A stretch of DNA of 64,000 nucleotides, from positions 15,486 through 79,485 of the IMG/VR virus record IMGVR_UViG_2740892219_000010; one strand, given 5' to 3'. The DNA comes from a virus (lineage: Duplodnaviria > Heunggongvirae > Uroviricota > Caudoviricetes). Position 1 is the first letter of the stretch, and every line of letters begins with the position of its first letter. The notes below the pieces were generated by a model that saw only the letters and a program-made list of their open reading frames with translations, was not told the DNA's origin and did not search any database. The position numbers and the translations under genes were made by a program. This document shows positions 994-63,086 of the stretch, piece after piece.

Positions 994-2954
994 GAGCTCC
1001 CTCCGAGCATTCTGGCCATCTCCTCGAGAGACAGTTTGTTTTGTGATTTTTTCCGTTGCTCAGCGAGCGTCTCGAGATTGAGCTGGAAACGAATTTTACT
1101 GATACGTAGCGCCGCCAGCGCGTATACCCAGCAGTCGAGCGCTTCATTTCGCCGGCCCTGGTTGTCCCAGCGATAAACGACGCGACCGTTAATCAGTTTC
1201 GGAATCAAAACTTCAGAGACGAGCTGTTTTGCCTCTGTCGTGCCGAATATTTCGTCGTCGTTGGGAAAATGAATCGCACCTGGTGTCGCCGATTTAGAAT
1301 CGGGTTCCAGCGGCAGGCGCATTGCGAGCAAATCTTTTGCCGTATCAGTACCGATTAACGACAAATAGACTTTATTCGCGTTACGTGTACGCGGCATATT
1401 TACGACTGGCTGACCGTATGAGCTCGCACCTTTAATTGGAATAACCCACAGCGGACCGAGTTTCAGCGAGCGGTTATAAACGACCTGCGCATCTATACCA
1501 CCGGTATCCCACGCCCAGCGACTGACGCCGATTGTGGTTCCGTCGCTGCGTCGGTATTGTTTGCGAATCACACCGTCGACGCGCTGCAGCGTGTCCTCCT
1601 CGTCGTAGCGACCGAGAACGATGGTTTTATCAATCAACCAGCACTCTTCCTCGGCTCCCCAGCCCCATACGTAACACTCGTAGCGCCCGGACGTCTGAGA
1701 GTCGATGCCACCGGTCAGATAGACAACACCGTCAGGAACCTGGCTGGCGTATTTTTCCCGGCGATTAACGAGAATATCGTGCTCCAGCTGCTCGCTGGCT
1801 ACGTCGCTCCAGAGTTCGCCGAGCGTCGTGTTATGAAACGTCTTCTCCTTGAGCGGGTCGCCTTTCGCTTTCAGCCACTCGCTGACAATCTCGCCCCAGC
1901 CGTCGAGATTCAGTGAATACAGGGCGTTTATCACGATCGCAGCGTGTTTCGGTGCGCGAACGACGCCTCCGTCATGATCAAAAAAATGAATGCCGTCCCG
2001 GGTCCAGGTGCAGTCCTCGGCTATCCAGCGCCCTCCGAGCTCCATTTTTTCGAGGTCGCGATAGTAAAAATGCTCCGGGCAGTGGCAGCACTGGTAATAC
2101 GCGGACGACGATTTCGCCTCATTGGTCTGTAAGCTGTTATCCCATTTGAGGCCGTATTCGATACCGTCGAGACCAAATACCAGGGTCTGCTCCTCGCTAC
2201 AATGCGGACACTTCAGGTAAAAACGAAATGTCAGATCAGCAGCGTCTTCCAACATTTCTATATGGCTTTTGCCGGTAACGGTCGGCGTCGAACCGAAAAT
2301 TGCTTTTGGGTACGCTGCACCTTTAATTCGAACGAGCGCCAGCTCGATGGGCGAGCCCTCGCCCTTGCCTTTTTTTGCAACCTCCAGCGGCCAGCCGTCG
2401 ACTTCGTCACCCTCGACAACCTGTTTCGTCAGTCGCCGGAAATTTCCTGGTGTACTCGCGCCACGAAAATCGATAATCGCCCCGTTCATCTCTTTACGCT
2501 GGAGATTGTTACGCTCGTTGCTTTTATCCCAGTCGGGGAAAATTTTCTGAATCACCGGCATTTCGGCGATAGCGGGGTCAACCTCGTCGGCGACAAATCC
2601 ATCCGATTCGTCATCGATAGGCTGATAGACCACGGCACTACGTTTTTTGTGCTCAGCGAAATAGAGCAGCGCCGCGACGAGTATTTTTGTATAACCGAGA
2701 CGAGCTGATTTGCGAACAGACACTATTTTTATCGCGTCGTTTGTCATCATATTCAACATCACAATCTGGACCGGCTGAGTCGTCCAGTGACCCGCAATAT
2801 GGCTGGAGCCTTCGGGGAGGTAAAAATATTTATCAGCCCACTCAACCCCCGTCATCGGTATCGTCACGCGCAAGGGATTCAACCCTGTCGAGATCGCGTT
2901 CGATATCGCTGACATCGTAATCGCTGAAGTCGACTCGTATGTCTGCCAGTTCAT
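990..2954 (-). CDS. A: Terminase large subunit, lambda gpA family
   Basis: 654 aa; motifs VEWADKYFYLPEGS, KSARLGYTK, YLTGGIDSQ, VIPIKGAS, EALDCWVYALAALRIS match recalled lambda gpA. Confidence 0.9.
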   Translation of the reverse strand: MNWQTYESTSAITMSAISNAISTGLNPLRVTIPMTGVEWADKYFYLPEGSSHIAGHWTTQPVQIVMLNMMTNDAIKIVSVRKSARLGYTKILVAALLYFAEHKKRSAVVYQPIDDESDGFVADEVDPAIAEMPVIQKIFPDWDKSNERNNLQRKEMNGAIIDFRGASTPGNFRRLTKQVVEGDEVDGWPLEVAKKGKGEGSPIELALVRIKGAAYPKAIFGSTPTVTGKSHIEMLEDAADLTFRFYLKCPHCSEEQTLVFGLDGIEYGLKWDNSLQTNEAKSSSAYYQCCHCPEHFYYRDLEKMELGGRWIAEDCTWTRDGIHFFDHDGGVVRAPKHAAIVINALYSLNLDGWGEIVSEWLKAKGDPLKEKTFHNTTLGELWSDVASEQLEHDILVNRREKYASQVPDGVVYLTGGIDSQTSGRYECYVWGWGAEEECWLIDKTIVLGRYDEEDTLQRVDGVIRKQYRRSDGTTIGVSRWAWDTGGIDAQVVYNRSLKLGPLWVIPIKGASSYGQPVVNMPRTRNANKVYLSLIGTDTAKDLLAMRLPLEPDSKSATPGAIHFPNDDEIFGTTEAKQLVSEVLIPKLINGRVVYRWDNQGRRNEALDCWVYALAALRISKIRFQLNLETLAEQRKKSQNKLSLEEMARMLGGSS

Positions 2955-3408
2955 TCAGGGCTATCGCCAGCTCCTCTCGTAATACACTGCTCGCCTCCTG
3001 CGGCATTTCAGGCCACACCTTTTTCAATCGTGGTGGCCACGACTCGACGCGGGTACGTAATTCAACGGCGACGCGAGATACAGCTACGCTGATTAATTCA
3101 ATTGGCGCGTAGCGTTTAGCAAGAATGCGACGTTTTACTCGTGCCATCAGGATTCGCTCCTGTCGTTCCTCATTTTTCAGCCACTGCTCGCGATTTTTTT
3201 CGGGAGAATTGTCCCCCACTTCCGGTTCGTCAGTACCAATTGTGTCGCGTCTATTACTCCGGAGATAATGAATATAAAAATGGCGCCAGGCATCAAGGTC
3301 CCAATCGCCACGTCCCTGTGGGACTGGAGCTCCCGGAAGTTTTGCAAGATCGCGCAGACGACGATCAGATAGCAGTAAATGTGCTGCGACCTCAGCCTGA
3401 CTTGCCAT
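2842..3408 (-). CDS. Putative terminase small subunit (Nu1 position)
   Basis: 188 aa ORF immediately upstream of and overlapping terL; assigned by position, sequence similarity to Nu1 weak. Confidence 0.45.
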   Translation of the reverse strand: MASQAEVAAHLLLSDRRLRDLAKLPGAPVPQGRGDWDLDAWRHFYIHYLRSNRRDTIGTDEPEVGDNSPEKNREQWLKNEERQERILMARVKRRILAKRYAPIELISVAVSRVAVELRTRVESWPPRLKKVWPEMPQEASSVLREELAIALNELADIRVDFSDYDVSDIERDLDRVESLARDDTDDGG

Positions 3409-18092: not shown

Positions 18093-18503
18093 TCACGCCC
18101 CTTTCTTTGCTATCGGAGTGATGGAACTCAGCAGCAGGCGGCAGCGACCAGGCGCGCCAATGCGCTGCCCGGTTATCTTGTCGTAAGTTTCATGCGGTGA
18201 GGCACACCAGGTTGTCGCTGTTTCGTGGAGTTTCACTTGCCGCTCACCATTTCTGCGAATCGCGATCCCGGTGTGCGTTTTGCCCTTACGTTTCACTGCT
18301 GGCGCTGCGGCTACGGATGCCTGACGGGCAGGCTTAGCAGGGGTTGAAAAATTGCCTGCTTTAGGTCTTGGCACAAAAACCGCGCGAGTGCGCGCACGTG
18401 GCCCGACGTTCATATTCCACAAAATGACGTCGAGATAGTTTTTACCGTCGTCTATGTGTCCTTTGTCCGACGGGTACTCTAATTTGCCTGGAGTGGTGGT
18501 CAT
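18093..18503 (-). CDS. Hypothetical basic protein
   Basis: 136 aa, Lys/Arg-rich, downstream of the helicase. Confidence 0.4.
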   Translation of the reverse strand: MTTTPGKLEYPSDKGHIDDGKNYLDVILWNMNVGPRARTRAVFVPRPKAGNFSTPAKPARQASVAAAPAVKRKGKTHTGIAIRRNGERQVKLHETATTWCASPHETYDKITGQRIGAPGRCRLLLSSITPIAKKGA

Positions 18504-18541
18504 TGGTCTTTCCTCGGTTATTTCACGCTGGTCAGGCGTGG

Positions 18542-19957
18542 TTAAAATTCATTTGTGCGAGAATTATCGCTACGGGAATAACGTTTATTTTTTTCTGAGC
18601 GGTCGTTGGTACGGCGATAAACCTCCTCATCGCTGATATCAATAACTGAGCCATTTTTCATCAGGGCGTAGGCTGTTCCCGATGGTCCTTCGCGGTTCAG
18701 ACGTAGCAACATTTCCATGAGATTTGGGTCGGCATTTTCGTTATAAACAGCATCACGATAGAGGCCAATCCAGACATCGCAATCTTGTTCGATCTGCCCG
18801 GTATCTTTACTGTCGCTCGGGTTAGGCCGCTTATCGGCACGTTCTTCAAGCTTTCGGTTGAGTTGCGTCAGCAGGACCACAACACAATCCAGCTCTTTTG
18901 CCAGGTTCTTCAAACCGGTTGTGATATCGCCATACGCAATATCCCTACGCTCTGCCGATTCGGTCTTCATCAGCGTCAAATAGTCAATTGCCACCAGGCC
19001 AACCGAGCCACGCATCCGTTTAACTTTTCGACATTCAGCGACAATATGCGCAAGGGTTACACCTGCCGTGCTGTCAATCATCATGTTGGATTCGGCAATC
19101 TCCCCCGCCTTTGCTATTGCGAGACTCAATTCAGATTCATCGTTAGGGCCAAGATAAAAAATCTCCGAATTGACCTTTGCTTCCTGCGCAACCATGCGTT
19201 CAATGAGACTTCTGTCAGTCATTTCCAGGCTAAATACCAGCGTCGGCAAACGATGATTCAGAGCAAAATGCACCGCAATTTTATTAAACGCGGCTGTCTT
19301 GCCCATTTTTGGCCGGGCACCAATAACGACCAATGAACCTCTTAACGCCTGCTTTGGTGCCATTAAGCGATCAAGGCTTTCGATTCCGAGCGTTAGTCCG
19401 GCTGCATGTGCTGGATCATTGAAACGGCGCTCAAGGTCATCTATCCAGTCATCGACGACTTCACTTGCCGGACGCAAACCGCCCTTATGCCCGGTACGGG
19501 AATGTTCGGCCACCTGCCCAATCACTTGCTGAACGGCGGTGATCCTGTCAGTAGCAGTCATATCTGCAGGCTGGATCATAATCTCCAGACAAGAATTCAA
19601 CTTTTCCACGGCATAACGAAGAATGGCTTTTTCACGTACAATTTTCGCGTAGTTGACCATTGAGGCCGGAATCGCCGCCTTACTCATTTCAGCCAGGTAT
19701 GCGAATCCCCCCACGCGCTCATACAGCCCCTTCGATTCCATCAGTTCGGTCAGTGTTATCAGGTCAGTTGGTTTATCAGCTTGAAATAATCCTTTGATCT
19801 CCCGGTAGATAACCTGATGCGCATTGATATAAAACGTTTCCGGTTTCAGTAACGCAAATACCGCATTGGTTCTGTCGTGGTCGGTATTCAGCATCAGACA
19901 GCCCAGAACAGCCTGTTCTGCGTCAACGCTGTACAGTGCAATCGCGTTATTTATCAT
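18542..19957 (-). CDS. Replicative DNA helicase, DnaB family
   Basis: 471 aa; Walker A GARPKMGKTA and DnaB-like N-terminus (SVDAEQAVLGCLM). Confidence 0.85.
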   Translation of the reverse strand: MINNAIALYSVDAEQAVLGCLMLNTDHDRTNAVFALLKPETFYINAHQVIYREIKGLFQADKPTDLITLTELMESKGLYERVGGFAYLAEMSKAAIPASMVNYAKIVREKAILRYAVEKLNSCLEIMIQPADMTATDRITAVQQVIGQVAEHSRTGHKGGLRPASEVVDDWIDDLERRFNDPAHAAGLTLGIESLDRLMAPKQALRGSLVVIGARPKMGKTAAFNKIAVHFALNHRLPTLVFSLEMTDRSLIERMVAQEAKVNSEIFYLGPNDESELSLAIAKAGEIAESNMMIDSTAGVTLAHIVAECRKVKRMRGSVGLVAIDYLTLMKTESAERRDIAYGDITTGLKNLAKELDCVVVLLTQLNRKLEERADKRPNPSDSKDTGQIEQDCDVWIGLYRDAVYNENADPNLMEMLLRLNREGPSGTAYALMKNGSVIDISDEEVYRRTNDRSEKNKRYSRSDNSRTNEF

Positions 19958-20702
19958 TTGCGCGTTCTTCCTTGACCGAAACGTAGCAGCGTTCGGTAAT
20001 CAGATAATCAAGATTTTTACGCCGCCAGAATCCTCCCCTGCCATTTGGCCTGTCCTCCAGCATCCAGCGACAATTGCCACCGATAAATTCCAGATAGGCC
20101 CGCCAACGGGACTCATTGAAATTGAATTTTTTCCAGAAAGTGCGAAGGTGTTTTTTTCTGCCGTCAGTGAGGATTTTCACTGGTGGCATCTCTGGCAAAA
20201 TCTCGTGATAGGTATCGAGTATCACCTGATAATTTATTCTCTGGTCGGCAGGTTGTTGGGTGTCGGCGTCAACCGATTCACCATCAGTAATAATCTCTGT
20301 AGTATTCTCTGTAAGAATGTTTGTTGGTTTTCCACGTACAGGCCTGGTGGTTTTCCCCTCACCTGTATGTGGTTTTTCCGCATCCTTGTATGCGGACGTA
20401 AGTAGCTGGCACAACACATCATTATCGATTTTGTAGTACAGCCTGGCAGGCAAGCCCTGTTTACGTTCCAGCAAGATGCCGAGACCACGTAGTTTTTTGC
20501 GCGCGCCCTCCTGCTCGTATCGTGAAAGCCCTGTTTCCTCTTCCCACTCATCCTGGGTTTTATATACCCAGCCGTCGTCAGTTGTTCTGTTTGTCCAGTA
20601 CGTCAACTGCGACAGAAACAATGCGGCAGTCACGCCCATTTCAAGACGGATAAAACTTCTCTGGAAGGCTATGGGTCTATCAAGTAACGGGAGGATGTTC
20701 AT
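19947..20702 (-). CDS. Phage replication initiation / replisome organiser protein
   Basis: 251 aa immediately upstream of and overlapping the DnaB-like helicase. Confidence 0.5.
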   Translation of the reverse strand: MNILPLLDRPIAFQRSFIRLEMGVTAALFLSQLTYWTNRTTDDGWVYKTQDEWEEETGLSRYEQEGARKKLRGLGILLERKQGLPARLYYKIDNDVLCQLLTSAYKDAEKPHTGEGKTTRPVRGKPTNILTENTTEIITDGESVDADTQQPADQRINYQVILDTYHEILPEMPPVKILTDGRKKHLRTFWKKFNFNESRWRAYLEFIGGNCRWMLEDRPNGRGGFWRRKNLDYLITERCYVSVKEERANDK

Positions 20703-20923
20703 ATGCCCAAAGCCTCTGAGAGAACGCGACAGCCAGCCTCATAGGCAGCGCCAGAGAGATTTTGCTCACGCAGTTTCGCTTTTTCTTCTTCGTACTTTTC
20801 CCATACAGAACGTGCAGCTGCGACGCGGCCATCGAATATGGGGCGGATCTCTGCAACATGTGCCGGGCGTCCATTCAGGTGCCAGCCGTTACGCCAGGTA
20901 ATGCGGTCAATATGTCTTAACAT
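20699..20923 (-). CDS. Hypothetical protein
   Basis: 74 aa ORF overlapping the replication gene start. Confidence 0.3.
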   Translation of the reverse strand: MLRHIDRITWRNGWHLNGRPAHVAEIRPIFDGRVAAARSVWEKYEEEKAKLREQNLSGAAYEAGCRVLSEALGI

Positions 20924-20962
20924 CGGTCTTTCCTCGGTATAAGTTAAACGCTGGTCAGGCGC

Positions 20963-21439
20963 TCATGCATGGTGGTCTTGCGCAGTGCGTATCACTGCTC
21001 CTCGCGTCGCTACCAGCGCCGCTATTGCTTCGTCAATTTCCTGAATAGTTAACTCTGGCGCGAAGTGGAGATGTACAGCGTTAATCGCTTCCACCCCTTC
21101 TTTTGCCGCCAGCGTTGCCAGCAAAACGGGATCGCCCGGCGACTCCAGACGTGCCCGCCGTTCTGCGGGTAGCACGGCTTTCATCACACTGGCCAGCACC
21201 TGAGTTTTTCGGCGCGCCGCCGTTGTCTCGCCACGTAACCAGCGAAAGATTTTCTGCCGATTGTTGTTGATGGCTCTCCAGTCCACGTTGCCGTCCGCGT
21301 CCTCAAATTCATGTAGTCTCAACTCATCATTGCGTCCCTGACTGAACCAGGCCCGGCAGATTTCAATCGTGACGAGTTCCTGCCCTGCCCTTGCCGCCCA
21401 GGTCAAAATCTCTTTTTGTAATTCCTCTTGGTTTTCCAT
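20963..21439 (-). CDS. CII-like / YdaT-like regulator
   Basis: 158 aa; NVDWRAINNNRQKIFRWLRGETTAARRKTQ resembles recalled Rac YdaT; follows the Cro-like gene. Confidence 0.5.
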   Translation of the reverse strand: MENQEELQKEILTWAARAGQELVTIEICRAWFSQGRNDELRLHEFEDADGNVDWRAINNNRQKIFRWLRGETTAARRKTQVLASVMKAVLPAERRARLESPGDPVLLATLAAKEGVEAINAVHLHFAPELTIQEIDEAIAALVATRGAVIRTAQDHHA

Positions 21440-21497
21440 AGCGTCTCCTGTCGCTAAAAATTGATTACGCTTAATCAGATTTGGGGCTCACCAACAG

Positions 21498-21728
21498 TTA
21501 AGCTGCTTCCGTTTTAGGCAAGCTGTCATCTGGGTTTGGGTAAAGATCCGGTCTAAGATCATGAGGGGTCACGCGCCATTCAAGAGCTTCAGATGTGCGC
21601 AAAACCTCTTCACCGGGAACCCGTCCTTTGAACCAGAGGCTTACCGTTTGTGGTTTTTTCCCTAATCGCCGCCCTAACTCGGATTGACTCATTACGGAAA
21701 GAATTTTGTCTTGCAGTTGTTTATCCAT
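21498..21728 (-). CDS. Cro-like HTH regulator (YdaS family)
   Basis: Start at ATG 21728 (MDKQLQ) preceded by RBS aaggag; HTH SQSELGRRLGKKPQTVSLW; divergent from the repressor. Confidence 0.6.
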   Translation of the reverse strand: MDKQLQDKILSVMSQSELGRRLGKKPQTVSLWFKGRVPGEEVLRTSEALEWRVTPHDLRPDLYPNPDDSLPKTEAA

Positions 21729-21753
21729 ATGGACTCCTTGTGTCCGCGTCATC

Positions 21754-21774
21754 ATTACAAACAATAACTGTAAT
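21754..21774. promoter_or_regulatory. Candidate operator palindrome in the immunity intergenic region
   Basis: ATTACA-N9-TGTAAT between the divergent Cro-like and repressor genes. Confidence 0.35.
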
Positions 21775-21811
21775 TACAAATTATATTTGCAATGCTCCCT
21801 ACAATTAAACC

Positions 21812-22240
21812 TTGTATCCTTACGGTATGAACACAAAAACGAAAAACATGGCTTTTGCTAGCCGACTACAACGGATTCTAAAAGACTTAGGCTGGTCTCA
21901 ATCTGAGTTAGCTCGCCATATTGGGGTTACGGCTCAATCAGTTCAGGCATGGTGTAATGGGGTAACTCCAAGAAAAGATAAATTAGACAAGCTAGCAAAA
22001 GTGACCGGATACCCTGTTCATTTTTTCTTCATGAATGAAGGGGAATATTTGGATGAATCCACACTACACCCGGGTAATTACAATCAAGAACTAACCCCGC
22101 AAGAACAGGCTCTACTGCAACTATTCAGAGGACTGCCTGAGAGCGAAAAAAATAAATTAATCAATGAGCTAAAAGAAAAAAGAGAGCACTTCGATCTACT
22201 GCTAAAAGAACTACTTGAAGCCAAAAACCAGACAAAATAG
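21812..22240 (+). CDS. Prophage repressor, HTH XRE family, no peptidase domain
   Basis: 142 aa; N-terminal HTH (LGWSQSELARHIGVTAQSVQAW), C-terminal coiled-coil-like tail. Confidence 0.65.
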   Translation: MYPYGMNTKTKNMAFASRLQRILKDLGWSQSELARHIGVTAQSVQAWCNGVTPRKDKLDKLAKVTGYPVHFFFMNEGEYLDESTLHPGNYNQELTPQEQALLQLFRGLPESEKNKLINELKEKREHFDLLLKELLEAKNQTK

Positions 22241-23251
22241 TTCAGTTCAAATTTCCAGGCCAGCCGCTGCTGGCATGCAACTTTCCCCTAACACAAAAAC
22301 ACCTTTACACAGTGAATATTTTTTTTGCCCCTCACTACAAATTATTTTTTAAAAACACATTGACCATTACAAATACAAATTGTAAAGTCACTTTCATCAA
22401 CAACGCTTACCCAGCGGCAGTTGTTCAGAAACAAGTTCTGACAGCCGGAAAGACGGCACCAAATTTTGCGCGTCGGCGCCAACACGGTGACAGAGGGAAA
22501 GACTTCACCGGCATATGGCACATGTGTCGAAGCGGTCTGGATGGAAGCGGAGCCTTAACGCGTTGTCTCCATAGCAGGTAGCCGGAATGTGCAAGCCACA
22601 GCCAGGTATGAGCGATTGATTCACCATCAAGGCGATACGGTGTGACCACCAGGGAAGAGTCCTGGCTACAACACGAGAGCGCACTTCATCGACTCAACTT
22701 TGAGCTTTGTCGTTAAATTTTGAAATGGCGGAGTGCGCTCCCGGTTGTGGTGAACAGGTGTTTAACGGGAACTCCCTGCCCGTTACCCGGTTCGATTCCG
22801 GGCGCCCATCATCAATTTGCTGTGTTTAGTCTTTGCCCAGTCCGCACGATGGGCCATTTTTTCACACAGCCAGGTTTTATCGCTGTGCCTGAGTCCCCAA
22901 CAGGAGAGGCCAAACCCGCAGCGTGACACCAGGGAAAGACCGGAGGAAGTACCACGCCTGACCAGCGTTGACCATGAGCCTGACCAGCTCAAAACAGGAA
23001 AGACCAGCCCGGGCCTGACCAGCCCTGTACGGTCGTAATGGAAACATAACGACGCCGGAAACGTAACCGGCACCCTTTAGATAGCAAAAGACCCGCACAA
23101 GGCGGGCCAGTTACCCCGAACGGCGACCAAACCATTCGGATTTATCACAAGTGACCAAACTTGTGATGAGGAAAGACCAACGACACTGACGCTATGGAAG
23201 CTGATCAATATTCGCTGATCGGCTCTGAGTATACATTACCAAGGAGTCGCT

Positions 23252-23572
23252 ATGGAAGCGCGCACCATCCCAGTAACACTCTTTATTCATTATGCAACTT
23301 CAACTTTCAGCCACGAAAAGCTGCTTGTTGCGACTGTTGATATGTCAAAAAATTTTCCAGACAGGTACATCCTTCTGGAAAGCCGCGAAATTGAAATTAC
23401 CGTTAACCAGCCCGAGCCAATCGACATCATCGGTTTACAGGTCGAGCAACTGCGTGAACAAAAACAGAAAACAGTCGCCGACGCCCAACAGCGTATTGCT
23501 GCTATCGATGACAAAATCCAGCAGTTACTTTGCATCGAATACACGCCAGATACCGATGAGCTCCCCTACTAA
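23252..23572 (+). CDS. Hypothetical protein, first gene of early-left operon
   Basis: 106 aa with RBS aaggag. Confidence 0.45.
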   Translation: MEARTIPVTLFIHYATSTFSHEKLLVATVDMSKNFPDRYILLESREIEITVNQPEPIDIIGLQVEQLREQKQKTVADAQQRIAAIDDKIQQLLCIEYTPDTDELPY

Positions 23573-23602
23573 AAACCACTGACCTGTAATGAGGAAAGAC
23601 CA

Positions 23603-25822
23603 ATGACCATTTTTAACGGCTTGTTAGAAGCGAAAAAAGGCGCGCTCAAAAACGGCGCGATCCCGGCGCTGGCCATCGCCATCGCCGCCCCTAACAAAAA
23701 AGTTGCCGAGAACATCATCATCGGCAAATTGTGGGAAGCCTACCCTGACCACGGCGACAACTATTTCAAACCTAAAATCTGGGAAGATGCCCCGGGCCAA
23801 CCGCGCCCAGGCGTCGGTGAGTTTGATGAGACGTTTGCCACAGAACACAGTTTTGATGGCGAAAAATGGGTAGTTAACACTCCTGTTGATTCAGATTGCA
23901 GTTCAGCAGATATCTCACAGGTTAGCGACCTGATGAAACTGCCGGCTCGTGAACGATTCGCCGCCGTTCTGCTGTTCAGCCACGACGCCAACGAAGTCGA
24001 CAGTGAATTGCTTGCGCAGACGCGTGAATACCTGGAGATGCTCGATAACAGTGATACTGACAGTGAGGATGAGGTTGACGCGTTTAACCGCATCGTTCTT
24101 GATGCCATGGTGGCGTGTAAGCCCATCGAGTACATGCATATTGCTGGATTGAATAATCTGGTACATGCAATTTTGGCAAGTTGCGATACCCAGGAACAAA
24201 ACCCGACCAGTTGGACTATCTCCAAATTTATAAAAAAATGGGTAGAGAATCCCGGTAAACGCGATGAAATGCTGCCGGAGATAAAACCAGAAACAGCATC
24301 CGCACGTCCTTACAAACAGACTCACGCCACTCTGGATCGTGAAATTGCCTGCGCCCTGTTACCTGTTGCCCCGGAAAAAATCACCCCCAGCATCCTGAAA
24401 GCGGCAGACGAAATAATCAGTCAGGACAGGGAAGATTTTAAACGCTGGTCAATGGCCTTGCGCACAACGGATCAGATCCTTGCCTATGACCGCGCATCAG
24501 TATTCGGTGTTATTCAGAGCGCCCCCGCAAAAGACACGTACCACTTCCCGCAATCCCTGCGCAATCACATCGATAACTGGCTGCAAGCTAACGGGCAGCG
24601 TGATGCAAATGCTGTTGAAGAGAAGCCAAAGGAAGCAGCACCAAAGGATGATGTAAAAGTCATCAACCACGGCGGCGGACGATTCTCAATTGATGGGATG
24701 ATGTCAGAAACACCCTCAAATCAGGGCGAAAAAAGCGAAACAGCAAATGCTGGAGAACGTAGTTTGCAGCAGTTGCGTGAGCAGTTTGTCACGCCTCGCC
24801 ATGTGTATGACGTACCTGAAAATAACGCCGTATCACAGAGGGAACCTGCAGCTATTACTACCCCGGCAGAAGAGACTCCTCCACAAGAACAACTTAGCGA
24901 GCAGGTAAAGGATCTGGTGCAGAACGTTGACGCGCTGGTTGAGCGGATCCATACCGAAGAGCACAAGCGGCAGAATGCAATCTCAGCTATCGAAACGGAG
25001 TTAAAGGACTCCGGCGACACGGATAACCTGGCATTGTGGAAGAACGTATTCAAAACCGATGAGCGCTTCACCAGTGCTTTCTCTCAGAACGGCGGCGGCA
25101 CATCCATCAACGGCACTTATATAGCGATGAAAGCGACTCGCGAATTTGGGCCGTTTGGTATTGGCTGGGGTGTAGAGGTGCTGGAGGAGCGCTTTGATAA
25201 AGGCGCACCGATAGTTCGTAAAAAACAGGTTGGTGAAAAAATAGAATGGGATCTGATTCAAGACGGTGTTGGCGGGTACCTATGTGAAATGCACCACACC
25301 ATGAAAGTGAGAGTCTGGTACATATTGAATGGGGTACGCGGTGAGTCCGAGGCTTACGGATGCACACCTTATATCTACGACACTAAATACGGACCAACAA
25401 GCGACGGCGAAGCGCCGAAGAAATCCTGGACGGATGCTGTTAAGAAAGCGCTATCCCCTCTCGGATTCAGCGCCGATATTTTCATGGGCCTGTACGACAA
25501 TCCGGAATACCGCCAGAGGAATAAAGCTGAGTTTGATATCAAGAATGCCAGCGAGAATGCGGAAGATGCTACCCGTCTGCGTAAGGAACTGGATGAGGAG
25601 CTTATCAACGTTGCCAATACGCTGGCCGCCGCGGTAACCACCAACGAAGTAAACAAGGTATTTGGCCTCATCGCCCGCGAAGTGGATGTACACAGGAAAG
25701 CAGCGGAAGCCAAAGGCGATAAAGAATATTCATCGTATCTGGGATCGCGCCTGCGCCGTATCACCGACATTAAAACTGAACGCCTCGCCGCCCTTACCGC
25801 TGCACAGGAGCAAACCGCATGA
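23603..25822 (+). CDS. Large protein with C-terminal Rad52/Sak/Erf-like single-strand annealing domain
   Basis: 739 aa; C-terminal motifs GTYIAMKATREFGPFGIGWGVEV and KKSWTDAVKKALSPLGFSADIFMGLYD resemble Rad52-family signatures; N-terminal ~480 aa unassigned. Confidence 0.5.
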   Translation: MTIFNGLLEAKKGALKNGAIPALAIAIAAPNKKVAENIIIGKLWEAYPDHGDNYFKPKIWEDAPGQPRPGVGEFDETFATEHSFDGEKWVVNTPVDSDCSSADISQVSDLMKLPARERFAAVLLFSHDANEVDSELLAQTREYLEMLDNSDTDSEDEVDAFNRIVLDAMVACKPIEYMHIAGLNNLVHAILASCDTQEQNPTSWTISKFIKKWVENPGKRDEMLPEIKPETASARPYKQTHATLDREIACALLPVAPEKITPSILKAADEIISQDREDFKRWSMALRTTDQILAYDRASVFGVIQSAPAKDTYHFPQSLRNHIDNWLQANGQRDANAVEEKPKEAAPKDDVKVINHGGGRFSIDGMMSETPSNQGEKSETANAGERSLQQLREQFVTPRHVYDVPENNAVSQREPAAITTPAEETPPQEQLSEQVKDLVQNVDALVERIHTEEHKRQNAISAIETELKDSGDTDNLALWKNVFKTDERFTSAFSQNGGGTSINGTYIAMKATREFGPFGIGWGVEVLEERFDKGAPIVRKKQVGEKIEWDLIQDGVGGYLCEMHHTMKVRVWYILNGVRGESEAYGCTPYIYDTKYGPTSDGEAPKKSWTDAVKKALSPLGFSADIFMGLYDNPEYRQRNKAEFDIKNASENAEDATRLRKELDEELINVANTLAAAVTTNEVNKVFGLIAREVDVHRKAAEAKGDKEYSSYLGSRLRRITDIKTERLAALTAAQEQTA

Positions 25823-26388
25823 GCACTGCTATCGCTATTGCAAAAGAATATGCCAGTCTGATTGACCTGTTAGAAACCTCCGACGAACTGACGCCAGAGA
25901 TGATCGCCGACACGCTTGAAGGTATGGAAGGAGAACTGGGAGACAAACTGGACGCCATGATGGTCATCTGCCGCAATTTACAGGGCAATGCCAATACCTG
26001 CGCTGAAGAAATGTCTCGCCTGGCTACCCGTAAGACGTCCTTTGAAGGCAAGGAAAAAGCAATTCGAAAGCATATGCTCGCCTGCCTGCAAGCTGCTGGC
26101 CTGGATAAACTGAAAACCGCAAAAAACACATTTACTGATGCACAGGGGGCTATCCGGGTAATTATTGATAACAAAGATAAGATCCCGGACGAGTATGAGG
26201 GTGTGTCACTTGTTGATGTAGAAACGGTTATTACACCAAACAAGCGAGCCATTAAAGAAGTGATTGAATCTGCGGAGGCGGTTGCCGCCGAAATACTGGC
26301 GCGTGGAGAAACACCACCAGCCGAGTTATTAAACCCGGTACCAGGCGCACATCTGGAACGCGGCGAACGGTCACTGAGGATACGCTAA
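25819..26388 (+). CDS. Hypothetical acidic protein
   Basis: 189 aa, ATGA-coupled to the 739-aa gene. Confidence 0.45.
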   Translation: MSTAIAIAKEYASLIDLLETSDELTPEMIADTLEGMEGELGDKLDAMMVICRNLQGNANTCAEEMSRLATRKTSFEGKEKAIRKHMLACLQAAGLDKLKTAKNTFTDAQGAIRVIIDNKDKIPDEYEGVSLVDVETVITPNKRAIKEVIESAEAVAAEILARGETPPAELLNPVPGAHLERGERSLRIR

Positions 26389-26570
26389 TGCTTAAACTCA
26401 CATTAAAGCGTGGTGACGCGGTTCACCTGGTACTTGCCGATGGTACCAATGGCATTATTGAAGCACGGAGCCGCTGCGAACTTGGGCTACACCTGCCAGA
26501 AAACATTAAGGTCACTCGGGAGAAATCGGCATTCCCCCCACCAGAACTGATTACGCCTAATCAGAAATAA
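26388..26570 (+). CDS. Hypothetical small protein
   Basis: 60 aa, start overlaps previous stop. Confidence 0.3.
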   Translation: MLKLTLKRGDAVHLVLADGTNGIIEARSRCELGLHLPENIKVTREKSAFPPPELITPNQK

Positions 26571-26619
26571 AAACTCACCATCGCTAGCATTGCGATTCAC
26601 CAGTAACCGGAGGATCACA

Positions 26620-26844
26620 ATGCTGCGATGGCAACCGGGAGCAACTCTGCTCTCCGCATTTGATATCAAAATTGGCCGACTGTCGGCCAGCGTCAGGAAA
26701 CAGACTTTGACCGAGTCTGATATTGCCCGTGCCTGCCATGTGGCAGATGACGCAATAAGCTACATAATGAGGAAAGACCATGAAAAGCGATCACGACATA
26801 ATCACCAGAGAAGAAATGGTCGAGCTGACGGGAAGCCCACTTAA
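26620..26844 (+). CDS. Hypothetical small protein
   Basis: ATG at 26620 with RBS ggagg (track ORF begins at an upstream TTG). Confidence 0.35.
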   Translation: MLRWQPGATLLSAFDIKIGRLSASVRKQTLTESDIARACHVADDAISYIMRKDHEKRSRHNHQRRNGRADGKPT

Positions 26845-27043
26845 ATCAAAGCAATGTGAGGCTCTTCGCCGGGCTGGAATTTTCTTCATGGAAAGGGCTG
26901 ACGGACACCCAAAAACAACCTGGGGCCATTTCATGAACCCAATAAAATTTCGCAATTTACAGGAGGTGACGACGCGAAAAGATGATGAACCTGATTTTGG
27001 AGCAATATTTAATGGCCGGAAAGAGAAAGAACCCAGCAGATAA
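26780..27043 (+). CDS. Putative excisionase-like protein
   Basis: 87 aa directly upstream of and overlapping the integrase. Confidence 0.4.
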   Translation: MKSDHDIITREEMVELTGSPLKSKQCEALRRAGIFFMERADGHPKTTWGHFMNPIKFRNLQEVTTRKDDEPDFGAIFNGRKEKEPSR

Positions 27044-28028
27044 CTGGATGCCGCCTCGTGTTTACCAGGGCAAAGCGGCCTACGAATTCAGGAATAAAGA
27101 TAACAAAGCGATACGCCTGTGCGCATTGGATGCACCACGATCAGCCGTATGGCTGGCATATGAAAAAGCGGTCGGTGACGAAAAAGAAAGAAATACTTTT
27201 CAGGCGCTCGCGGAACAATTCATGACCTCCCCTGATTTTATGGATTTGGCAGTCGAAACCAGGAAAGACTACACAAAATATTCCGGAAAAGTTCTGCCTG
27301 TCTTCGGGAAGATCGACCCGGATAAAATCAAACCTGAACATATTCGGCGCTATATGGATCAACGCGGTTTATCAAGCCGAACTCAGGCAAACAGGGAAAA
27401 AAGCTTTATGTCCCGGGTATTCCGTTGGGGTTATGAACGAGGTTATGTTCAGAGGAATCCTTGTCAGGGAGTTAAACAGTTTAAAGAGACAGCTCGCGAA
27501 CGTTATATTACGGATGAAGAATATCAGGCCGTTTATGAAGTGTCTCCTGACGTCGTTCGCGTGGCAATGGAGATTGCCTACTTATGCGTGGCCAGACAGA
27601 GTGATGTACTTTCATTGCAGAAAGACCAACTGTTCGATTCCGGGATCTACATTCGTCAGGGAAAAACCGGCGTTAAGCAAATCAAAGCCTGGTCGCCTCG
27701 TCTGCAGAAAGCGATAGCTCTGGCTCGTTCTCTGCCATTAAAAACGGGAATCAGTAGTCTGTTTGTGATTCATCAAACTACCGGTGGCAAGTACACCCGT
27801 GATGGTTTTAACTCTCGTTGGCGTGATGTCAAAGCTGCGGCACAGGAAAAATATCCTCATCTGCAAATAGACTTCACATTTCATGATCTGAAAGCAAAAG
27901 GTATCTCTGATCTGGAAGGCAGCCTGGAAGAGAAGCAAGCAATTTCCGGGCATAAGAACCCACGACAGACAGCAGCATATGACCGAAAAGTTAAAGTAGT
28001 GCCCGTAGTTGGTGGCCAGAGAAAATGA
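26982..28028 (+). CDS. int: Tyrosine integrase of the lambdoid prophage
   Basis: 348 aa tyrosine-recombinase-like C-terminal region; 3-prime end 60 bp from the att repeat. True start may be ATG at 27012. Confidence 0.8.
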   Translation: MMNLILEQYLMAGKRKNPADNWMPPRVYQGKAAYEFRNKDNKAIRLCALDAPRSAVWLAYEKAVGDEKERNTFQALAEQFMTSPDFMDLAVETRKDYTKYSGKVLPVFGKIDPDKIKPEHIRRYMDQRGLSSRTQANREKSFMSRVFRWGYERGYVQRNPCQGVKQFKETARERYITDEEYQAVYEVSPDVVRVAMEIAYLCVARQSDVLSLQKDQLFDSGIYIRQGKTGVKQIKAWSPRLQKAIALARSLPLKTGISSLFVIHQTTGGKYTRDGFNSRWRDVKAAAQEKYPHLQIDFTFHDLKAKGISDLEGSLEEKQAISGHKNPRQTAAYDRKVKVVPVVGGQRK

Positions 28029-28087
28029 ATGATGATGCGTCCAGAGAAAAATCATCTTCGGACGCATCTTCGGAAATGAGAAAGAAG

Positions 28088-28213
28088 ATACAAAAAAACC
28101 ACCCGAAGGTGGTTTCACGACACTGCTTATTGCTTTGATTTTATTCTTATCTTTCCCATGGTACCCGGAGCGGGACTTGAACCCGCACAGCGCGAACGCC
28201 GAGGGATTTTAAA
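28088..28213. repeat. att direct repeat copy 1 (126 bp): leuZ terminator plus last 55 nt of tRNA-Leu
   Basis: 125/126 identical to 62929-63054; lies between the two convergent integrase genes. Confidence 0.9.
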
Positions 28214-28319: not shown

Positions 28320-29321
28320 TTACCCTCTATTGTCAAAAGGGTTCAATTCAACTGCAGCCTCTAAATGACCTGGAGCAAAATGCGCATAACGCATAGTCAT
28401 TTTTATATCGCTATGCCCCAGTATTTTTTGCAACACAAGAATATTTCCTCCCCGCATCATAAAATGACTGGCAAACGTGTGACGTAGCACATGAGTTAAT
28501 TGCCCATCAGGAAGCTCGATCTTCGCTCTCTTAATTGCAGCGTCAAAAGCCTCATAACATGGTGAAAATAACGCTCCTCGTTTTTTAGGAAGCATAGCCT
28601 GCAATTGAGGTGAAATCGGTACAGTGCGGTTCTTCTTTCCTTTAGTTTTAACAAATGTGATTCGACCGGGCAGCACTTGAGATTGCTTTAATCCTTCAGC
28701 TTCACTCCACCGAGCACCAGTCGCAAGCCCAATACGGACAACAACCCCCAAATCTTTATTCCGTGACTCATCACACGCAATCAGAAGGCGTTCAATCTCA
28801 TCTACATACAGAAACGCCAATTCCTTTTCTTCCTCACGAAACTTGCGAATGCCAGTCAGGGGGTTTTCACCAGACCACTCCCCAAGGCGCTTCAGTTCGG
28901 CAAAAACAGCATGTAGATATGACTGCTCGCGATTAACGGTTGCTTCACTAAGTTTTTTCTTCCCCTTGGGATTCCATTCTCCTGATAACCTCCTTTCCCG
29001 ATAAGTAGCAAACATATTTTTGTCAAACTGAGAAGCAAATGGATCTCCCAGCCTAGAACAAATAGACTCAAGTTTGACTTTGCGCTCTGCACCAGAGGAC
29101 AAGGTTTTACCGTACATCTCAAACCAACGAGCAACCAACTCAGAAAGACGAGGACCAGAACCATCTTGAAACTCGTCTCCAACTCTACTATTCATTAAAC
29201 GGCGCTCATAAGAGAGCGCCTCACTTTTTGTCGCAAACTGTTTACGAATACGTTTTCCCGATGCCCCGTAAGGATAACATTCGCAAAGCCATTTACCTGA
29301 TGGAATCTTACGAACCGACAT
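28320..29321 (-). CDS. int: P2-family tyrosine integrase
   Basis: 333 aa; C-terminal HxxR..Y-type catalytic region (VLRHTFASHF..MRYAHF); adjacent to att copy 1. Confidence 0.85.
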   Translation of the reverse strand: MSVRKIPSGKWLCECYPYGASGKRIRKQFATKSEALSYERRLMNSRVGDEFQDGSGPRLSELVARWFEMYGKTLSSGAERKVKLESICSRLGDPFASQFDKNMFATYRERRLSGEWNPKGKKKLSEATVNREQSYLHAVFAELKRLGEWSGENPLTGIRKFREEEKELAFLYVDEIERLLIACDESRNKDLGVVVRIGLATGARWSEAEGLKQSQVLPGRITFVKTKGKKNRTVPISPQLQAMLPKKRGALFSPCYEAFDAAIKRAKIELPDGQLTHVLRHTFASHFMMRGGNILVLQKILGHSDIKMTMRYAHFAPGHLEAAVELNPFDNRG

Positions 29322-29326: not shown

Positions 29327-29674
29327 TTACTTATCACATAAATCAAATGCAGCCTTAGTGACATCTCCCAGATTCTTTTTTAACCCTGGGGCGGCATCAT
29401 TATCCAGCCAAAATGGATTATTGTTATCTAACGGTAACGCACCAAATGTTTTACCTTTTATTCGAGCCAAACCTGTAAGCGCATATAACTTATTATCGTC
29501 AAAATTCATCACATAAGGATTACCATCTAGACACTGTAACTGAACCTCATCAGTATTAAATGGCCATACCCCATTGAAACTCTCACGTTCAATATTTTTA
29601 AAAGGCATTGCGACGGCAGAAAAAGAAAACATAGATAAAAAAGTAACTAATAGTTGAACCTTTTTTACTTTCAT
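29327..29674 (-). CDS. Hypothetical secreted protein (cargo between int and repressor)
   Basis: 115 aa with N-terminal signal peptide; P2 has no gene here. Confidence 0.45.
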   Translation of the reverse strand: MKVKKVQLLVTFLSMFSFSAVAMPFKNIERESFNGVWPFNTDEVQLQCLDGNPYVMNFDDNKLYALTGLARIKGKTFGALPLDNNNPFWLDNDAAPGLKKNLGDVTKAAFDLCDK

Positions 29675-29703
29675 ACCATTACCTCAATTTAGCTCAAGTA
29701 AGA

Positions 29704-30354
29704 TTACAAATTAAAAAACATCCTAGAAATGGCACCACCTACCAAACCCCCTACGCAGATAAAGAATATTATTTCTTTTGGATAAAGTCGGATTAATTCT
29801 GAAGCACGAAGTCGGACTTCTGGTAAGGTCGAATTCTCTGTGTTGCTTGATACCGATTGTTGCTCTAACCACGACAATGCAGACTGCAACTGAGAACGAG
29901 TAAGATCGTTTAAACGTCCTGTACCGAAATTGATATGGCAATACCGCAGAAGTTTTTGTCGAAGTCCACAGTCTTCACTGTTACGTAGTAATAAACTTAC
30001 AAGAGCCTTACAGGCATCATGATCTTTACATCGCTCAAGCATTGCATGCAGAAAACTCTCCGCTGTTTTATATTGATTTACTGTCATATCATCAATACCA
30101 GCTACACCAATCTCCGCATGTACTTTTTGCCAAATAATAAACGCTTCAGTATTGCTAGCTTCTGCAATAGCAGCAACCAAGCTATTTAGCTCCTTACGCT
30201 GAGCCTTAAGCAAAGGGCGATCGTCATCATCATTATTCGAAGGGATTGCGATATTGACGGTATGAGAACCATCATATCGCCCTATCTGAATATTCTTTTC
30301 GTGAAAATCACGCCCAGCAACGCGATTGTTTGAACCGTTTGAGTTGACGGCCAT
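29704..30354 (-). CDS. Hypothetical protein with C-terminal TM helix (cargo)
   Basis: 216 aa; N-terminus NGSNNRVAGRDFHE echoes the C-terminus of the upstream repressor. Confidence 0.45.
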   Translation of the reverse strand: MAVNSNGSNNRVAGRDFHEKNIQIGRYDGSHTVNIAIPSNNDDDDRPLLKAQRKELNSLVAAIAEASNTEAFIIWQKVHAEIGVAGIDDMTVNQYKTAESFLHAMLERCKDHDACKALVSLLLRNSEDCGLRQKLLRYCHINFGTGRLNDLTRSQLQSALSWLEQQSVSSNTENSTLPEVRLRASELIRLYPKEIIFFICVGGLVGGAISRMFFNL

Positions 30355-30369
30355 GTCACCTCCCTACTA

Positions 30370-30774
30370 TCACCTACCCTTAGTTTCGTTATAGTCACGC
30401 CCAGCGATACGGTTATTACCGCCAGAAATATTTAACTCACGTCCTGATGGCTGAGTTTCCTTTTCACTGGCCGCACCTTTTAAAGCCCCGATCACCGCGT
30501 TTTTCACATCTAACGAAGCTGCTCGAAAGCGAGTAATCAACTCCTGCTCATCATCGTTATAAGTTTCAGGTGAGTGAATTCCCAACACAACATACTGAAC
30601 ATCAAGGCCAAAACGAGACAGCGCTGCCAAATACGCAGCATCAGGAAAGCTATCTCCTTTCTCATATCTAAGCTGAGTTAGCTTTTTGACTCCACCAATG
30701 TCGCTCATAGCAACTTGACTAAGTCCCAATCTTTCCCTTTCCTCACGCAACCTCTGACCAATATCATTTTTCAT
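30370..30774 (-). CDS. Immunity repressor, HTH XRE family (P2 C position)
   Basis: 134 aa; N-terminal HTH (LGLSQVAMSDIGGVKKLTQLRYEKG); divergent from cox-like operon. Confidence 0.6.
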   Translation of the reverse strand: MKNDIGQRLREERERLGLSQVAMSDIGGVKKLTQLRYEKGDSFPDAAYLAALSRFGLDVQYVVLGIHSPETYNDDEQELITRFRAASLDVKNAVIGALKGAASEKETQPSGRELNISGGNNRIAGRDYNETKGR

Positions 30775-30783
30775 ACAAAAACC

Positions 30784-30807
30784 TTGACAGGTATCTTTTT
30801 TGATACC
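30784..30807 (+). promoter_or_regulatory. Candidate early promoter with embedded operator palindrome
   Basis: TTGACA at 30784-30789 followed by GGTATC-N6-GATACC, in the repressor/cox intergenic region. Confidence 0.35.
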
Positions 30808-30849
30808 AAAATGATTTCACGAGCTATTAGATGATCACAATATATCACT

Positions 30850-31056
30850 ATGAAACAAGTTCTTCACGATACCAGATCACGCATTCCGCGTAACACCGCC
30901 ACAGGTCCAAGACTGGCACTTCGGATGTCCCTCGAGGAGCGAGCCGTCATTGATGAAATGGCAGCTAAAGAACAACGCTCATCCTCTAACATGGCGCGCA
31001 TGATCTTCCTTCGCGGCCTAGAGCTAACCCAGAAAGAACAAAACAAATCTTCCTGA
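30850..31056 (+). CDS. Small putative DNA-binding early protein
   Basis: 68 aa, first gene of the early-right operon. Confidence 0.35.
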   Translation: MKQVLHDTRSRIPRNTATGPRLALRMSLEERAVIDEMAAKEQRSSSNMARMIFLRGLELTQKEQNKSS

Positions 31057-31072: not shown

Positions 31073-31276
31073 ATGTCAGGTATAACCATCAATATCAATG
31101 TGAATGCCCCCTATGTATCCCTGCAGAAATATGCAGAGATAACAGGTATCCCTCTTAATACATGCAAAAAGATGTTGGCTGACGGTCGAATTATTATCCG
31201 ACCCAAACGCGCCAAAATGGAAAAGCCTGAAGTAAACCTTGTGGCGATGTTAAAAGACGCTTTGGCTAACAGCTAA
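31073..31276 (+). CDS. cox: Cox-like excisionase / early regulator
   Basis: 67 aa; APYVSLQKYAEITGIPLNTCKKMLADGRIII parallels recalled P2 Cox. Confidence 0.5.
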   Translation: MSGITININVNAPYVSLQKYAEITGIPLNTCKKMLADGRIIIRPKRAKMEKPEVNLVAMLKDALANS

Positions 31277-62928: not shown

Positions 62929-63054
62929 ATACAAAAAAACCACCCGAAGGTGGTTTCACGACACTGCTTATTGCTTTGATTTTATTCTTATCTTCCCCAT
63001 GGTACCCGGAGCGGGACTTGAACCCGCACAGCGCGAACGCCGAGGGATTTTAAA
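62929..63054. repeat. att direct repeat copy 2 (126 bp), overlapping the 3-prime half of intact tRNA-Leu
   Basis: 125/126 identical to 28088-28213. Confidence 0.9.
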
Positions 63055-63086
63055 TCCCTTGTGTCTACCGATTCCACCATCCGGGC
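63000..63086 (-). tRNA. leuZ: tRNA-Leu
   Basis: 87-nt minus-strand sequence, reverse complement matches recalled E. coli leuZ including 3-prime CCA. Confidence 0.9.

Follow-up and report, generated by a model that had tools for sequence, protein, structure and literature searches.

The 64,000-nucleotide stretch of DNA analysed here (the window; positions 15,486 to 79,485 of IMG/VR record IMGVR_UViG_2740892219_000010) contains a P2-like prophage of about 35 kb around the locus of interest, with an uninterrupted string of genes on the minus strand: the gene of an XRE-family repressor (30370-30774), open reading frames for proteins of 216 amino acids (29704-30354) and 115 amino acids (29327-29674), and the integrase gene int (28320-29321). 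A search of this strand from the repressor gene to int found no terminator-like site. The reading frames and sequences are as described in an earlier note on this DNA, which had drawn attention to a peptide common to the C-terminus of the repressor and the N-terminus of the 216-amino-acid protein, henceforth the partner. This peptide represents a widespread, conserved and apparently undescribed coupling of phage repressors and membrane proteins. The features of the two genes are as follows.

29704-30354, minus strand: partner gene, 216 amino acids, with N-terminal motif, Flk_N domain and C-terminal membrane anchor (PHROG 5825, PF27202)
29710-29781, minus strand: C-terminal transmembrane anchor of the partner, residues 192-215 (hydropathy, AlphaFold2 helix)
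29860-30222, minus strand: Flk_N helical domain of the partner, residues 45-165 (homology to host Flk, AlphaFold2 helices)
30238-30294, minus strand: second conserved, strand-like stretch of the partner, NIQIGRYDGSHTVNIAIPS, residues 21-39 (column identity 0.82; predicted local distance difference test score, pLDDT, below 50)
30295-30351, minus strand: N-terminal motif of the partner, AVNSNGSNNRVAGRDFHEK, residues 2-20, matching the repressor tail (pLDDT about 40, column identity 0.77)
30355-30369, minus strand: intergenic spacer TAGTAGGGAGGTGAC, 15 nt, with a strong Shine-Dalgarno sequence GGAGG for the partner gene (from the sequence)
30370-30774, minus strand: XRE-family repressor, 134 amino acids, in place of P2 gene C (PHROG 8, weak Pfam helix-turn-helix (HTH) match, AlphaFold2)
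30385-30438, minus strand: C-terminal tail motif of the repressor, ELNISGGNNRIAGRDYNE, residues 113-130, followed by the basic end TKGR (pLDDT below 50, column identity 0.81)
30583-30762, minus strand: HTH domain of the repressor, residues 5-64 (AlphaFold2; column identity 0.81 among class-A relatives)

With respect to the shared peptide itself, the repressor ends in ..SGRELNISGGNNRIAGRDYNETKGR (the end being also written ..ELNISGGNNRIAGRDYNETKGR), and the partner starts with MAVNSNGSNNRVAGRDFHEKNIQIG, the first residues being MAVNSNGSNNRVAGRDFHEK. Aligned in register, the repressor tail and the partner start have the peptide G-x-N-N-R-[IV]-A-G-R-D-[YF]-[NH]-E in common, a core of 13 residues. 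At the DNA level this corresponds to a single direct repeat of 34 nt (30297-30330 versus 30384-30417; 76% identical, 87 nt apart) which contains an exact core of 11 nt, GCTGGGCGTGA, and five of the nine identical residues of the window pair are encoded by different synonymous codons. An explanation of the repeat at the RNA level was rejected, as the repeat is direct, not inverted, and varies at synonymous sites. The second stretch of the partner, NIQIGRYDGSHTVNIAIPS, has no counterpart in the repressor.

The peptide is conserved on both proteins. In 120 relatives of the partner from many enterobacterial genera the N-terminus reads xVNSxGxxNRxAGRDFxENxIQIxxFDGxHTINIAIPS, residues G7, N10, R11, D16 and E19 being invariant in 50 relatives, and the relatives of the repressor end in INVSGxGNRVAGRDYNENKK. 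The column identity amounts to 0.77-0.82 in the motif segments and 0.81-0.83 in the folded domains, and to 0.25-0.51 in spacers and linkers, the spacer that precedes the tail motif of the repressor having a value of 0.25. An XRE repressor gene lies immediately upstream in all 94 loci that were retrieved via the 216-amino-acid protein, so that the gene of this protein must be regarded as a fixed companion of the repressor; in 93 of the loci, the tail of the repressor matches the N-terminus of the partner. The gap between the two genes ranges from -4 to about 30 nt in the relatives, with all frames represented and with locus L014 (91 nt) as the exception, and such short gaps suggest that repressor and partner are co-transcribed and that their translation is coupled. 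L014, a decayed symbiont locus of Candidatus Symbiopectobacterium, is a single case in which both motif copies are degenerate: the repressor tail reads GNRVAGNNFHENKK, and the partner, which starts 91 nt downstream of the repressor, has lost its N-terminal motif. On the viral contig L053, two tandem repressor genes, both coding for a tail, precede the partner gene, one of the tails having AGCD instead of AGRD.

The cassette is present in 521 of 5,426 complete genomes of Escherichia coli and also in prophages of Klebsiella, Salmonella, Yersinia, Serratia, Pectobacterium, Gilliamella and Pseudomonas; a scan of genome contigs yielded 6 loci only. Its carriers comprise P2-like prophages such as that of the window as well as Mu-like transposable prophages of Pectobacterium, Gilliamella and Pseudomonas, which were identified by their genes for a transposase, a MuB-like ATPase, a holin and a transglycosylase, and the two types of carriers have few other genes in common. 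In the Mu-like prophages, the gene behind the repressor codes for an Flk_N or similar membrane protein whose N-terminus matches the tail of its own repressor and not the motif found in E. coli. Examples from different lineages, each given as repressor tail and partner start, are QIFNGDISGQFAGNQIIN and QEFNGTAQGQFSSRDIIN, QTFHGSVGQAVAGNITN and QDFHGEVGQAAGGDINN, VVGDNAIQIGNVAG and VVGDEAIQIGQLQG, and EINGGQFSTGTIHNHY and DIHGGQFGNIHNHY.

When viral and metagenome contigs were searched for loci with the conserved HTH as the only query, 80 non-redundant pairs of a repressor and its downstream protein were obtained. Permutation of the partners among these pairs gave z = 15.4, and 27 of the 80 match at p <= 0.002 when compared to shuffles, 15 of them with Flk_N partners and 12 with other partners; correction of start codons yielded additional matching pairs. 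In a second set of 98 non-redundant repressors, the downstream N-terminus matches the repressor's own tail in 41 cases (p <= 0.01), and the non-matching repressors of this set are mostly relatives without such a tail and with unrelated neighbours. The motifs fall into at least six classes. Given these 27 pairs and the conservation in both protein families across Enterobacterales, the shared peptide is real and the match far beyond chance.

The motif also behaves as a module. One and the same motif class can be found on four kinds of partners, i.e., Flk_N proteins, two-helix membrane hairpins, zinc-ribbon proteins and a type predicted to combine a coiled coil with a single membrane helix and a periplasmic domain that contains cysteines, and its occurrence on unrelated partner domains favours recognition of motif by motif over recognition of motif by domain. 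The number of membrane helices is one or two in nearly all partners, the motif-bearing partners of L196, L247, L170 and L224 having none. The coiled-coil partners (L126, L168, L112, L186, L142, L128) all have a short C-terminal domain, expected to be periplasmic, in which two cysteines are conserved (C.F.G..Y..GS...C....G...W); they match PHROG 6521 ('membrane protein') and no Pfam family, and the other partner types likewise gave no Pfam family and PHROG annotations of 'membrane protein' or unknown. Whether the peptide is common among unrelated proteins was examined by a scan for the back-translated motif alone in IMG/VR DNA, and the outcome does not refute a specific association: 145 of 152 matches lie at the extreme N- or C-terminus of a protein, 36 of 41 distinct N-terminal carriers have an XRE repressor upstream, nearly all of these repressors ending in the tail motif among the sequences listed, and the complete C-terminal carriers found in IMG/VR, 18 in number, are without exception XRE repressors. 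Hence, unrelated proteins do not commonly contain the peptide. In the models of repressor and partner, the motif falls in either case into a segment with a pLDDT below 50 beside a confidently predicted fold.

Two origins of the likeness that had been considered in the earlier note, a local duplication at a mosaic junction and the splitting of what was once one gene, did not find support. The TGA of the repressor gene and the spacer result in three in-frame stops between the genes (TGA TAG TAG), which together with the strong ribosome-binding site exclude read-through; the gaps of the relatives occur in all frames, and no fused form of repressor and partner turned up, though no search was aimed at fusions. 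Regarding the duplication, the two copies share the codon at 129 of 297 positions with identical residues in 27 pairs, compared to 109 expected from independent choice, and the motif is ancient in both families. Since synonymous sites are thus near random between the copies, a recent duplication or gene conversion can be rejected.

The repressor belongs to PHROG 8 (E = 3e-14), matches the Pfam families HTH_31 and HTH_3 weakly and under their gathering cut-offs, and is 33% identical to P2 C over 46 amino acids; its HTH region also has weak matches to antitoxin models. The AlphaFold2 model shows a confident HTH at residues 5-64, helices at residues 74-106 and a tail from residue 106 to residue 134 with a pLDDT below 50. 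With its HTH domain, its place beside int and its orientation divergent from a cox-type early operon, the gene corresponds in position to C in the P2 order int-C-cox. No peptidase domain was detected in the repressor by a Pfam scan, and no LexA-box-like sites were found in the P2-like prophage except for one weak match inside gene A, which makes a non-SOS route of repressor control plausible. P2-type phages are the classic non-inducible temperate phages. At their very end, the repressor tails have a cluster of basic residues (KK, KKNK, RRRKTK) that is missing from the partner copy.

The partner, in turn, matches PHROG 5825 end to end (E = 7e-101), carries a precomputed match to Pfam PF27202 (Flk_N), and is related to residues 26-146 of Flk from E. 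coli K-12 (BLASTP, 28% identity, E = 2e-10; hhalign probability 96%). In its AlphaFold2 model, a disordered N-terminus (residues 1-40, pLDDT about 40) is followed by a helical domain (residues 50-172) and a membrane helix (residues 192-215), the Flk_N helices reaching block means of the pLDDT of 76-93 and the hydropathy having its maximum at residues 195-213. As one residue only follows the membrane helix, the remainder of the partner should face the cytoplasm. Flk resides in the cytoplasm and is attached to the membrane through an anchor at its C-terminus (PMC13344023), which further suggests that the N-terminal motif of the partner should face the cytoplasm. A search of the partner fold against the PDB with Foldseek gave nothing at E <= 0.001, its sequence had no match in the PDB, and neither a toxin or defence family (PADLOC, Pfam) nor a protease or other catalytic domain was found in it.

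Flk (Fluke, RflH), the host regulator of flagellar type III secretion, has the Flk_N helical domain and the cytoplasm-facing C-terminal anchor in common with the partner. However, the host protein comprises 331-333 amino acids, contains the Flk_N-like repeat twice, lacks the motif in its Pro/Gly-rich N-terminus and is encoded at the chromosomal pdxB-flk-yfcJ locus, whereas the phage form has about 190-270 amino acids, nearly always with the N-terminal motif, and the partner of the window has 216 amino acids with one domain and is encoded in a prophage. For these reasons, and because it scores 59.2 bits (E = 4e-16) against the NCBIfam Flk model with its equivalog cut-off of 353 bits, the partner was rejected as an equivalent of full-length Flk. 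The Flk_N family is small, with only 139 clusters among 1.84 billion representative proteins, and falls into two groups, host Flk, which lacks the motif, and short proteins of the phage type, nearly all of which have a motif at their N-terminus. Residues of about 151-202 of E. coli K-12 Flk (L269, b2321) align to residues 35-89 of the phage protein as a second, weaker copy of the first Flk_N part; host Flk thus seems to be an internal duplication of a unit that occurs once in the phage proteins. A short element, FGTxxLxxLxxxQL, is kept by many partners, among them some that do not match Flk_N in full.

Taken together, a motif that is alike on the products of adjacent genes, changes in both of them jointly, is independent of the partner domain, and resides on disordered termini in the same compartment is best explained by mutual binding of its two copies, and the coexistence of classes within one host genus, which argues against a conserved host reader, leads us to propose a self-matching interaction peptide. 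The view that the peptide is deliberately shared and links repressor and effector is in this respect upheld by its conservation at the amino acid level, its domain-like column identity and its co-variation across distant lineages. With a probability of roughly 0.5, we consider the peptide to be a selected, modular and self-matching interaction motif that ties the XRE repressor to a co-transcribed inner-membrane protein, the latter controlling the active repressor and thereby linking the lysogeny switch to a membrane or envelope event. According to this model, the copies on the disordered C-terminal tail of the repressor and on the disordered, cytoplasm-facing N-terminus of the partner would bind each other strand to strand, forming a discrete beta-ribbon or else a cross-beta assembly, and this pairing would keep a fraction of the repressor at its membrane partner. 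By tethering, titration or templated assembly the partner might then regulate the amount of active repressor, which is the preferred, albeit speculative, function, and the lysogeny switch of repressors of the non-SOS type might thus be coupled to a membrane or envelope event, which is speculative as well. Control of the repressor by the partner is favoured because the repressor has no self-cleavage domain and no evident SOS control, some partners have a periplasmic domain, and the N-terminal carrier is the sensor in known motif pairs; the direction of signalling and the biological outcome are speculative. As far as these comparisons go, the data point to a so far undescribed physical link between the lysogeny switch and the cell membrane.

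Several observations weigh against this model. That the XRE protein is the immunity repressor and the functional counterpart of P2 C we infer from gene position only. No fine co-variation was found inside the largest class, NRxAGRD (23 pairs, p = 0.24), so that the specificity signal exists only between classes, and L117 and L134 have repressors with a tail but without a detectable partner. Constant co-expression of a repressor with its inactivator would be awkward unless the partner is normally silent. Finally, repressor and partner are co-inherited, and some of the likeness within pairs could stem from shared ancestry; however, the randomised synonymous sites and the deep divergence argue against a mere persistence of ancestral similarity.

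The main rival is a toxin-antitoxin or abortive infection system, in which the membrane protein would be a latent toxic or exclusion effector that is restrained by the repressor tail and set free when the repressor is lost or inactivated, at induction or during attack by another phage; the cassette would then matter as an exclusion or suicide effector gated by the repressor. This possibility, which we regard as a real but lesser one, agrees equally well with the order of the genes and with the lack of any partner devoid of a repressor: as in type II systems, the first gene codes for an HTH protein whose C-terminal tail is disordered, and that of the partner follows directly or with an overlap of 4 nt, the partners are small with one or two membrane helices, and a partner without a repressor was found in none of the 94 loci, whereas repressors without a partner exist. 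In addition, exclusion genes linked to a repressor have precedents in K139 glo (as annotated) and in the lysogenic operon of lambda with its cI-rexAB genes. On the other hand, PADLOC and Pfam show no toxin or defence family in the partner, some motif partners (those of L196, L247, L170 and L224) are devoid of a membrane helix, and known antitoxin tails have no sequence in common with toxins; we know of no toxin-antitoxin system for which sequence identity between antitoxin tail and toxin terminus is a feature. Moreover, the main partner domain is homologous to that of host Flk, a non-toxic regulator (PMC13344023).

Rather unlikely, in our view, is that the motif serves self-association in parallel, i.e., that it oligomerises the repressor into dimers or tetramers for cooperative operator binding and the partner into membrane clusters without contact between the two. 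The motif is modular and terminal, and a repressor of 134 amino acids lacking a lambda-type C-terminal domain requires some element for oligomerisation; but it would remain unexplained why adjacent genes keep one class per lineage while classes differ between lineages, and why tail-less relatives of the repressor have no motif-bearing neighbours. A shade less probable still is a common recognition tag, read on both termini by a third factor such as a protease, an adaptor, a chaperone or a phage anti-repressor which would remove or activate both proteins together. Degradation signals are typically terminal, the repressor tails end in basic clusters, and in phage Mu the C-termini of the repressor govern ClpXP-dependent derepression. 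However, the basic end is missing from the partner copy, at least six classes exist, and different classes coexist within Pectobacterium and within Gilliamella, which makes a conserved host reader unlikely, while the few genes shared by the P2-like and Mu-like carriers leave no phage-encoded, co-varying reader evident. The chance that the likeness is a functionless by-product of local duplication, gene conversion or a recombination scar at a mosaic junction is very slight: what speaks for it is the 34-nt direct repeat at the gene boundary (76% identity, copies 87 nt apart), and against it stand the near-random synonymous sites in the 27 pairs, a conservation across genera like that of folded domains, and the recurrence of the pairing in phages of unrelated types and with partners whose domains are unrelated.

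The layout of the self-matching motif pair resembles that of amyloid signalling systems, whose signature is a C-terminus of one protein that matches the N-terminus of its neighbour, with collinear genes and tiny gaps (10.1101/2020.01.06.895854); the same layout is found in the E. coli defence pair Bab/Agp (BASS11) (10.1101/2024.11.07.622273). As in fungal HET-S/NWD2, in the bacterial BASS1-10 pairs of Bell and NLR proteins and in Bab/Agp, the motif described here has about 20 residues, is rich in glycine, asparagine, glutamine and hydrophobic residues, is modular and occurs in several classes; the genes are separated by 15 nt, the core comprises 13 residues, and the pairs of relatives are significant in 27 of 80 and 41 of 98 cases. 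However, in amyloid pairs the C-terminal carrier is a pore-forming death effector and the N-terminal carrier an NLR/STAND or TPR sensor, whereas here they are a DNA-binding repressor and a small membrane protein, respectively, both encoded in the lysogeny module of Proteobacterial prophages, amyloid pairs being known from immunity. Pfam and PADLOC scans revealed no NACHT, NB-ARC, Bell or HeLo domains in repressor and partner proteins, and eight motif peptides compared to Pfam at E <= 10 matched no amyloid motif family (RHIM, HET-s, PP, sigma), BASS profiles being outside the libraries scanned. Because the domains differ and no known motif family matches, we do not assign the locus to an amyloid-motif family. 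Furthermore, from the conserved like charges of the main class (R, D, E) we infer that an antiparallel pair would fit at least as well as in-register stacking. Hence we regard as unlikely, though somewhat less so than the self-association just discussed, the prion-like variant in which clustering of the partner as sensor would cause its N-terminal motifs to nucleate a cross-beta assembly that recruits the repressor via its tail and inactivates it. In the pairs of L137, L170, L224 and L188, a G-phi-Q-phi-G core was noticed by eye (e.g., GNVQVGQ in the repressor and GNVQIGQ in the partner, or DNAIQIGNVAG and DEAIQIGQLQG), which is the signature reported for RHIM/BASS3 amyloid motifs, and the partners of L170 and L224 contain similar motif units repeated several times.

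Other known systems offer partial parallels. Extra genes behind the repressor are found in K139 (cI-orf2-glo-int) and in lambda (cI-rexA-rexB) as at this locus, and in the P2-related K139 the repressor, one or two accessory genes and int lie on one strand, with one accessory product being secreted, as is the case here. Glo of K139 is annotated as a periplasmic protein for phage exclusion, and genes similar to K139 orf2 fill the third slot in some relatives of the locus; Orf2 and Glo themselves were rejected as homologues of the window proteins for lack of sequence similarity, and K139 CI and Orf2 have no common terminal motif as judged by eye, without an alignment. In type II toxin-antitoxin systems of the HipB, HigA and MqsA type the layout is alike in that the HTH protein comes first, has a disordered C-terminal tail that binds the partner and is closely followed by the latter, but no known toxin family was matched by the partner in the Pfam and PADLOC scans. 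BlaR1/BlaI, ImmA/ImmR and anti-sigma factors represent membrane sensors acting on a cytoplasmic repressor, and there, too, a membrane-anchored protein is encoded next to a small repressor; the analogy is one of function only. A sensing role is conceivable for the periplasmic domain of some partners, yet the partner has no protease or other catalytic domain and recognition would proceed via a self-matching peptide and not via a cleavage site.

Amyloid-signalling papers searched for HTH, XRE and repressor made no mention of these terms, and searches of the literature retrieved no description of a motif pair of a repressor and a membrane partner. The logic of one peptide on neighbouring proteins, so far known from amyloid signalling in immunity, here occurs on a transcription factor in Proteobacterial prophages. 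A link between repressor and membrane represents a concrete and easily tested candidate for the control, if any, of the switching of P2-type phages. If the reading of the partner as a cross-beta sensor were true, P2-like and Mu-like prophages might be induced independently of the SOS response by a trigger at the membrane or envelope, and amyloid signalling would extend from cell-death effectors to gene regulation. Peptides of about 20 residues with natural specificity classes might also be used as orthogonal interaction tags.

The genes and sites next to the motif pair are the following.

28320-29321, minus strand: P2-type integrase, last gene of the leftward (lysogenic) string (38% identity to P2 Int, E = 1e-74)
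29327-29674, minus strand: DUF2511/YebY-like secreted protein, 115 amino acids (Pfam DUF2511 match, signal-peptide-like N-terminus)
30775-30849, no strand: divergent control region with a rightward promoter-like site and an inverted repeat (consensus matches)
30850-31056, plus strand: Arc-like early regulator (PHROG 3431, E = 3e-28)
31073-31276, plus strand: Cox-like excisionase/repressor (PHROG 575, E = 1e-27)

In the control region, a promoter-like site (consensus match, TTGACA-17-CAAAAT, 30784-30812) is oriented toward the early genes and is overlapped by a perfect inverted repeat, GGTATC-N6-GATACC (30790-30807), which is a candidate operator of the repressor.

It had correctly been pointed out that int and C are adjacent in P2, with nothing between them. 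Genes between int and the repressor are ordinary in other Peduoviridae, as in Vibrio phage K139 with its order cI-orf2-glo-int, so that extra genes in this position are not unusual for the family. The description of both genes of the window as cargo has to be narrowed, since the gene of the 216-amino-acid protein accompanies the repressor in each of the 94 loci and only the slot of the DUF2511 gene is variable: the third gene after the repressor codes for a DUF2511 protein in 45 of the 94 loci and other genes are found in the remaining ones. The DUF2511 gene occupies a variable cargo slot outside the motif pair. The 115-amino-acid protein matches Pfam DUF2511 with 25.7 bits (cut-off 21) over residues 29-113 and the YebY structure 7N0J with E = 0.009, and neither this protein nor the partner matched a defence system in PADLOC. 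A cargo hotspot between the partner gene and int is seen in L012, L058, L069, L071, L078, L063, L082, L085 and L089, and besides DUF2511 the slot contains genes for K139 Orf2-like or BRCT-domain-like proteins of about 290 amino acids, lipoproteins and small acidic proteins. In L262 and L176, tail-less relatives of the repressor are directly followed by a secreted DUF2511-like protein (..GDAWPFTVDSV.. and ..GADWPFTTEEMHLQC.., respectively), so that DUF2511 genes associate with the repressor family even without a membrane partner.

The prophage region is 99.2% identical to Escherichia phage 520873 (NC_049344). In the RefSeq entry of the latter, the partner gene (2422-3065) is unannotated and the tblastn match is split into four pieces, so that a disruption of the gene or a sequencing error may be present in this entry. 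The prophage adjoins yecA in E. coli strain H3, and in the window its far end is marked by a tRNA cluster on the minus strand, Leu(taa)-Cys(gca)-Gly(gcc) (region 63000-63300). At its other side, it borders directly on the end of another prophage, of lambdoid type (region 18500-28100), which carries genes for CII-like, O-like and DnaB-like proteins, an exonuclease of 739 amino acids, a Gam-like protein, an excisionase (26780-27043) and an integrase (26982-28028). The integrase genes of the two prophages are arranged tail to tail with about 290 nt between them.

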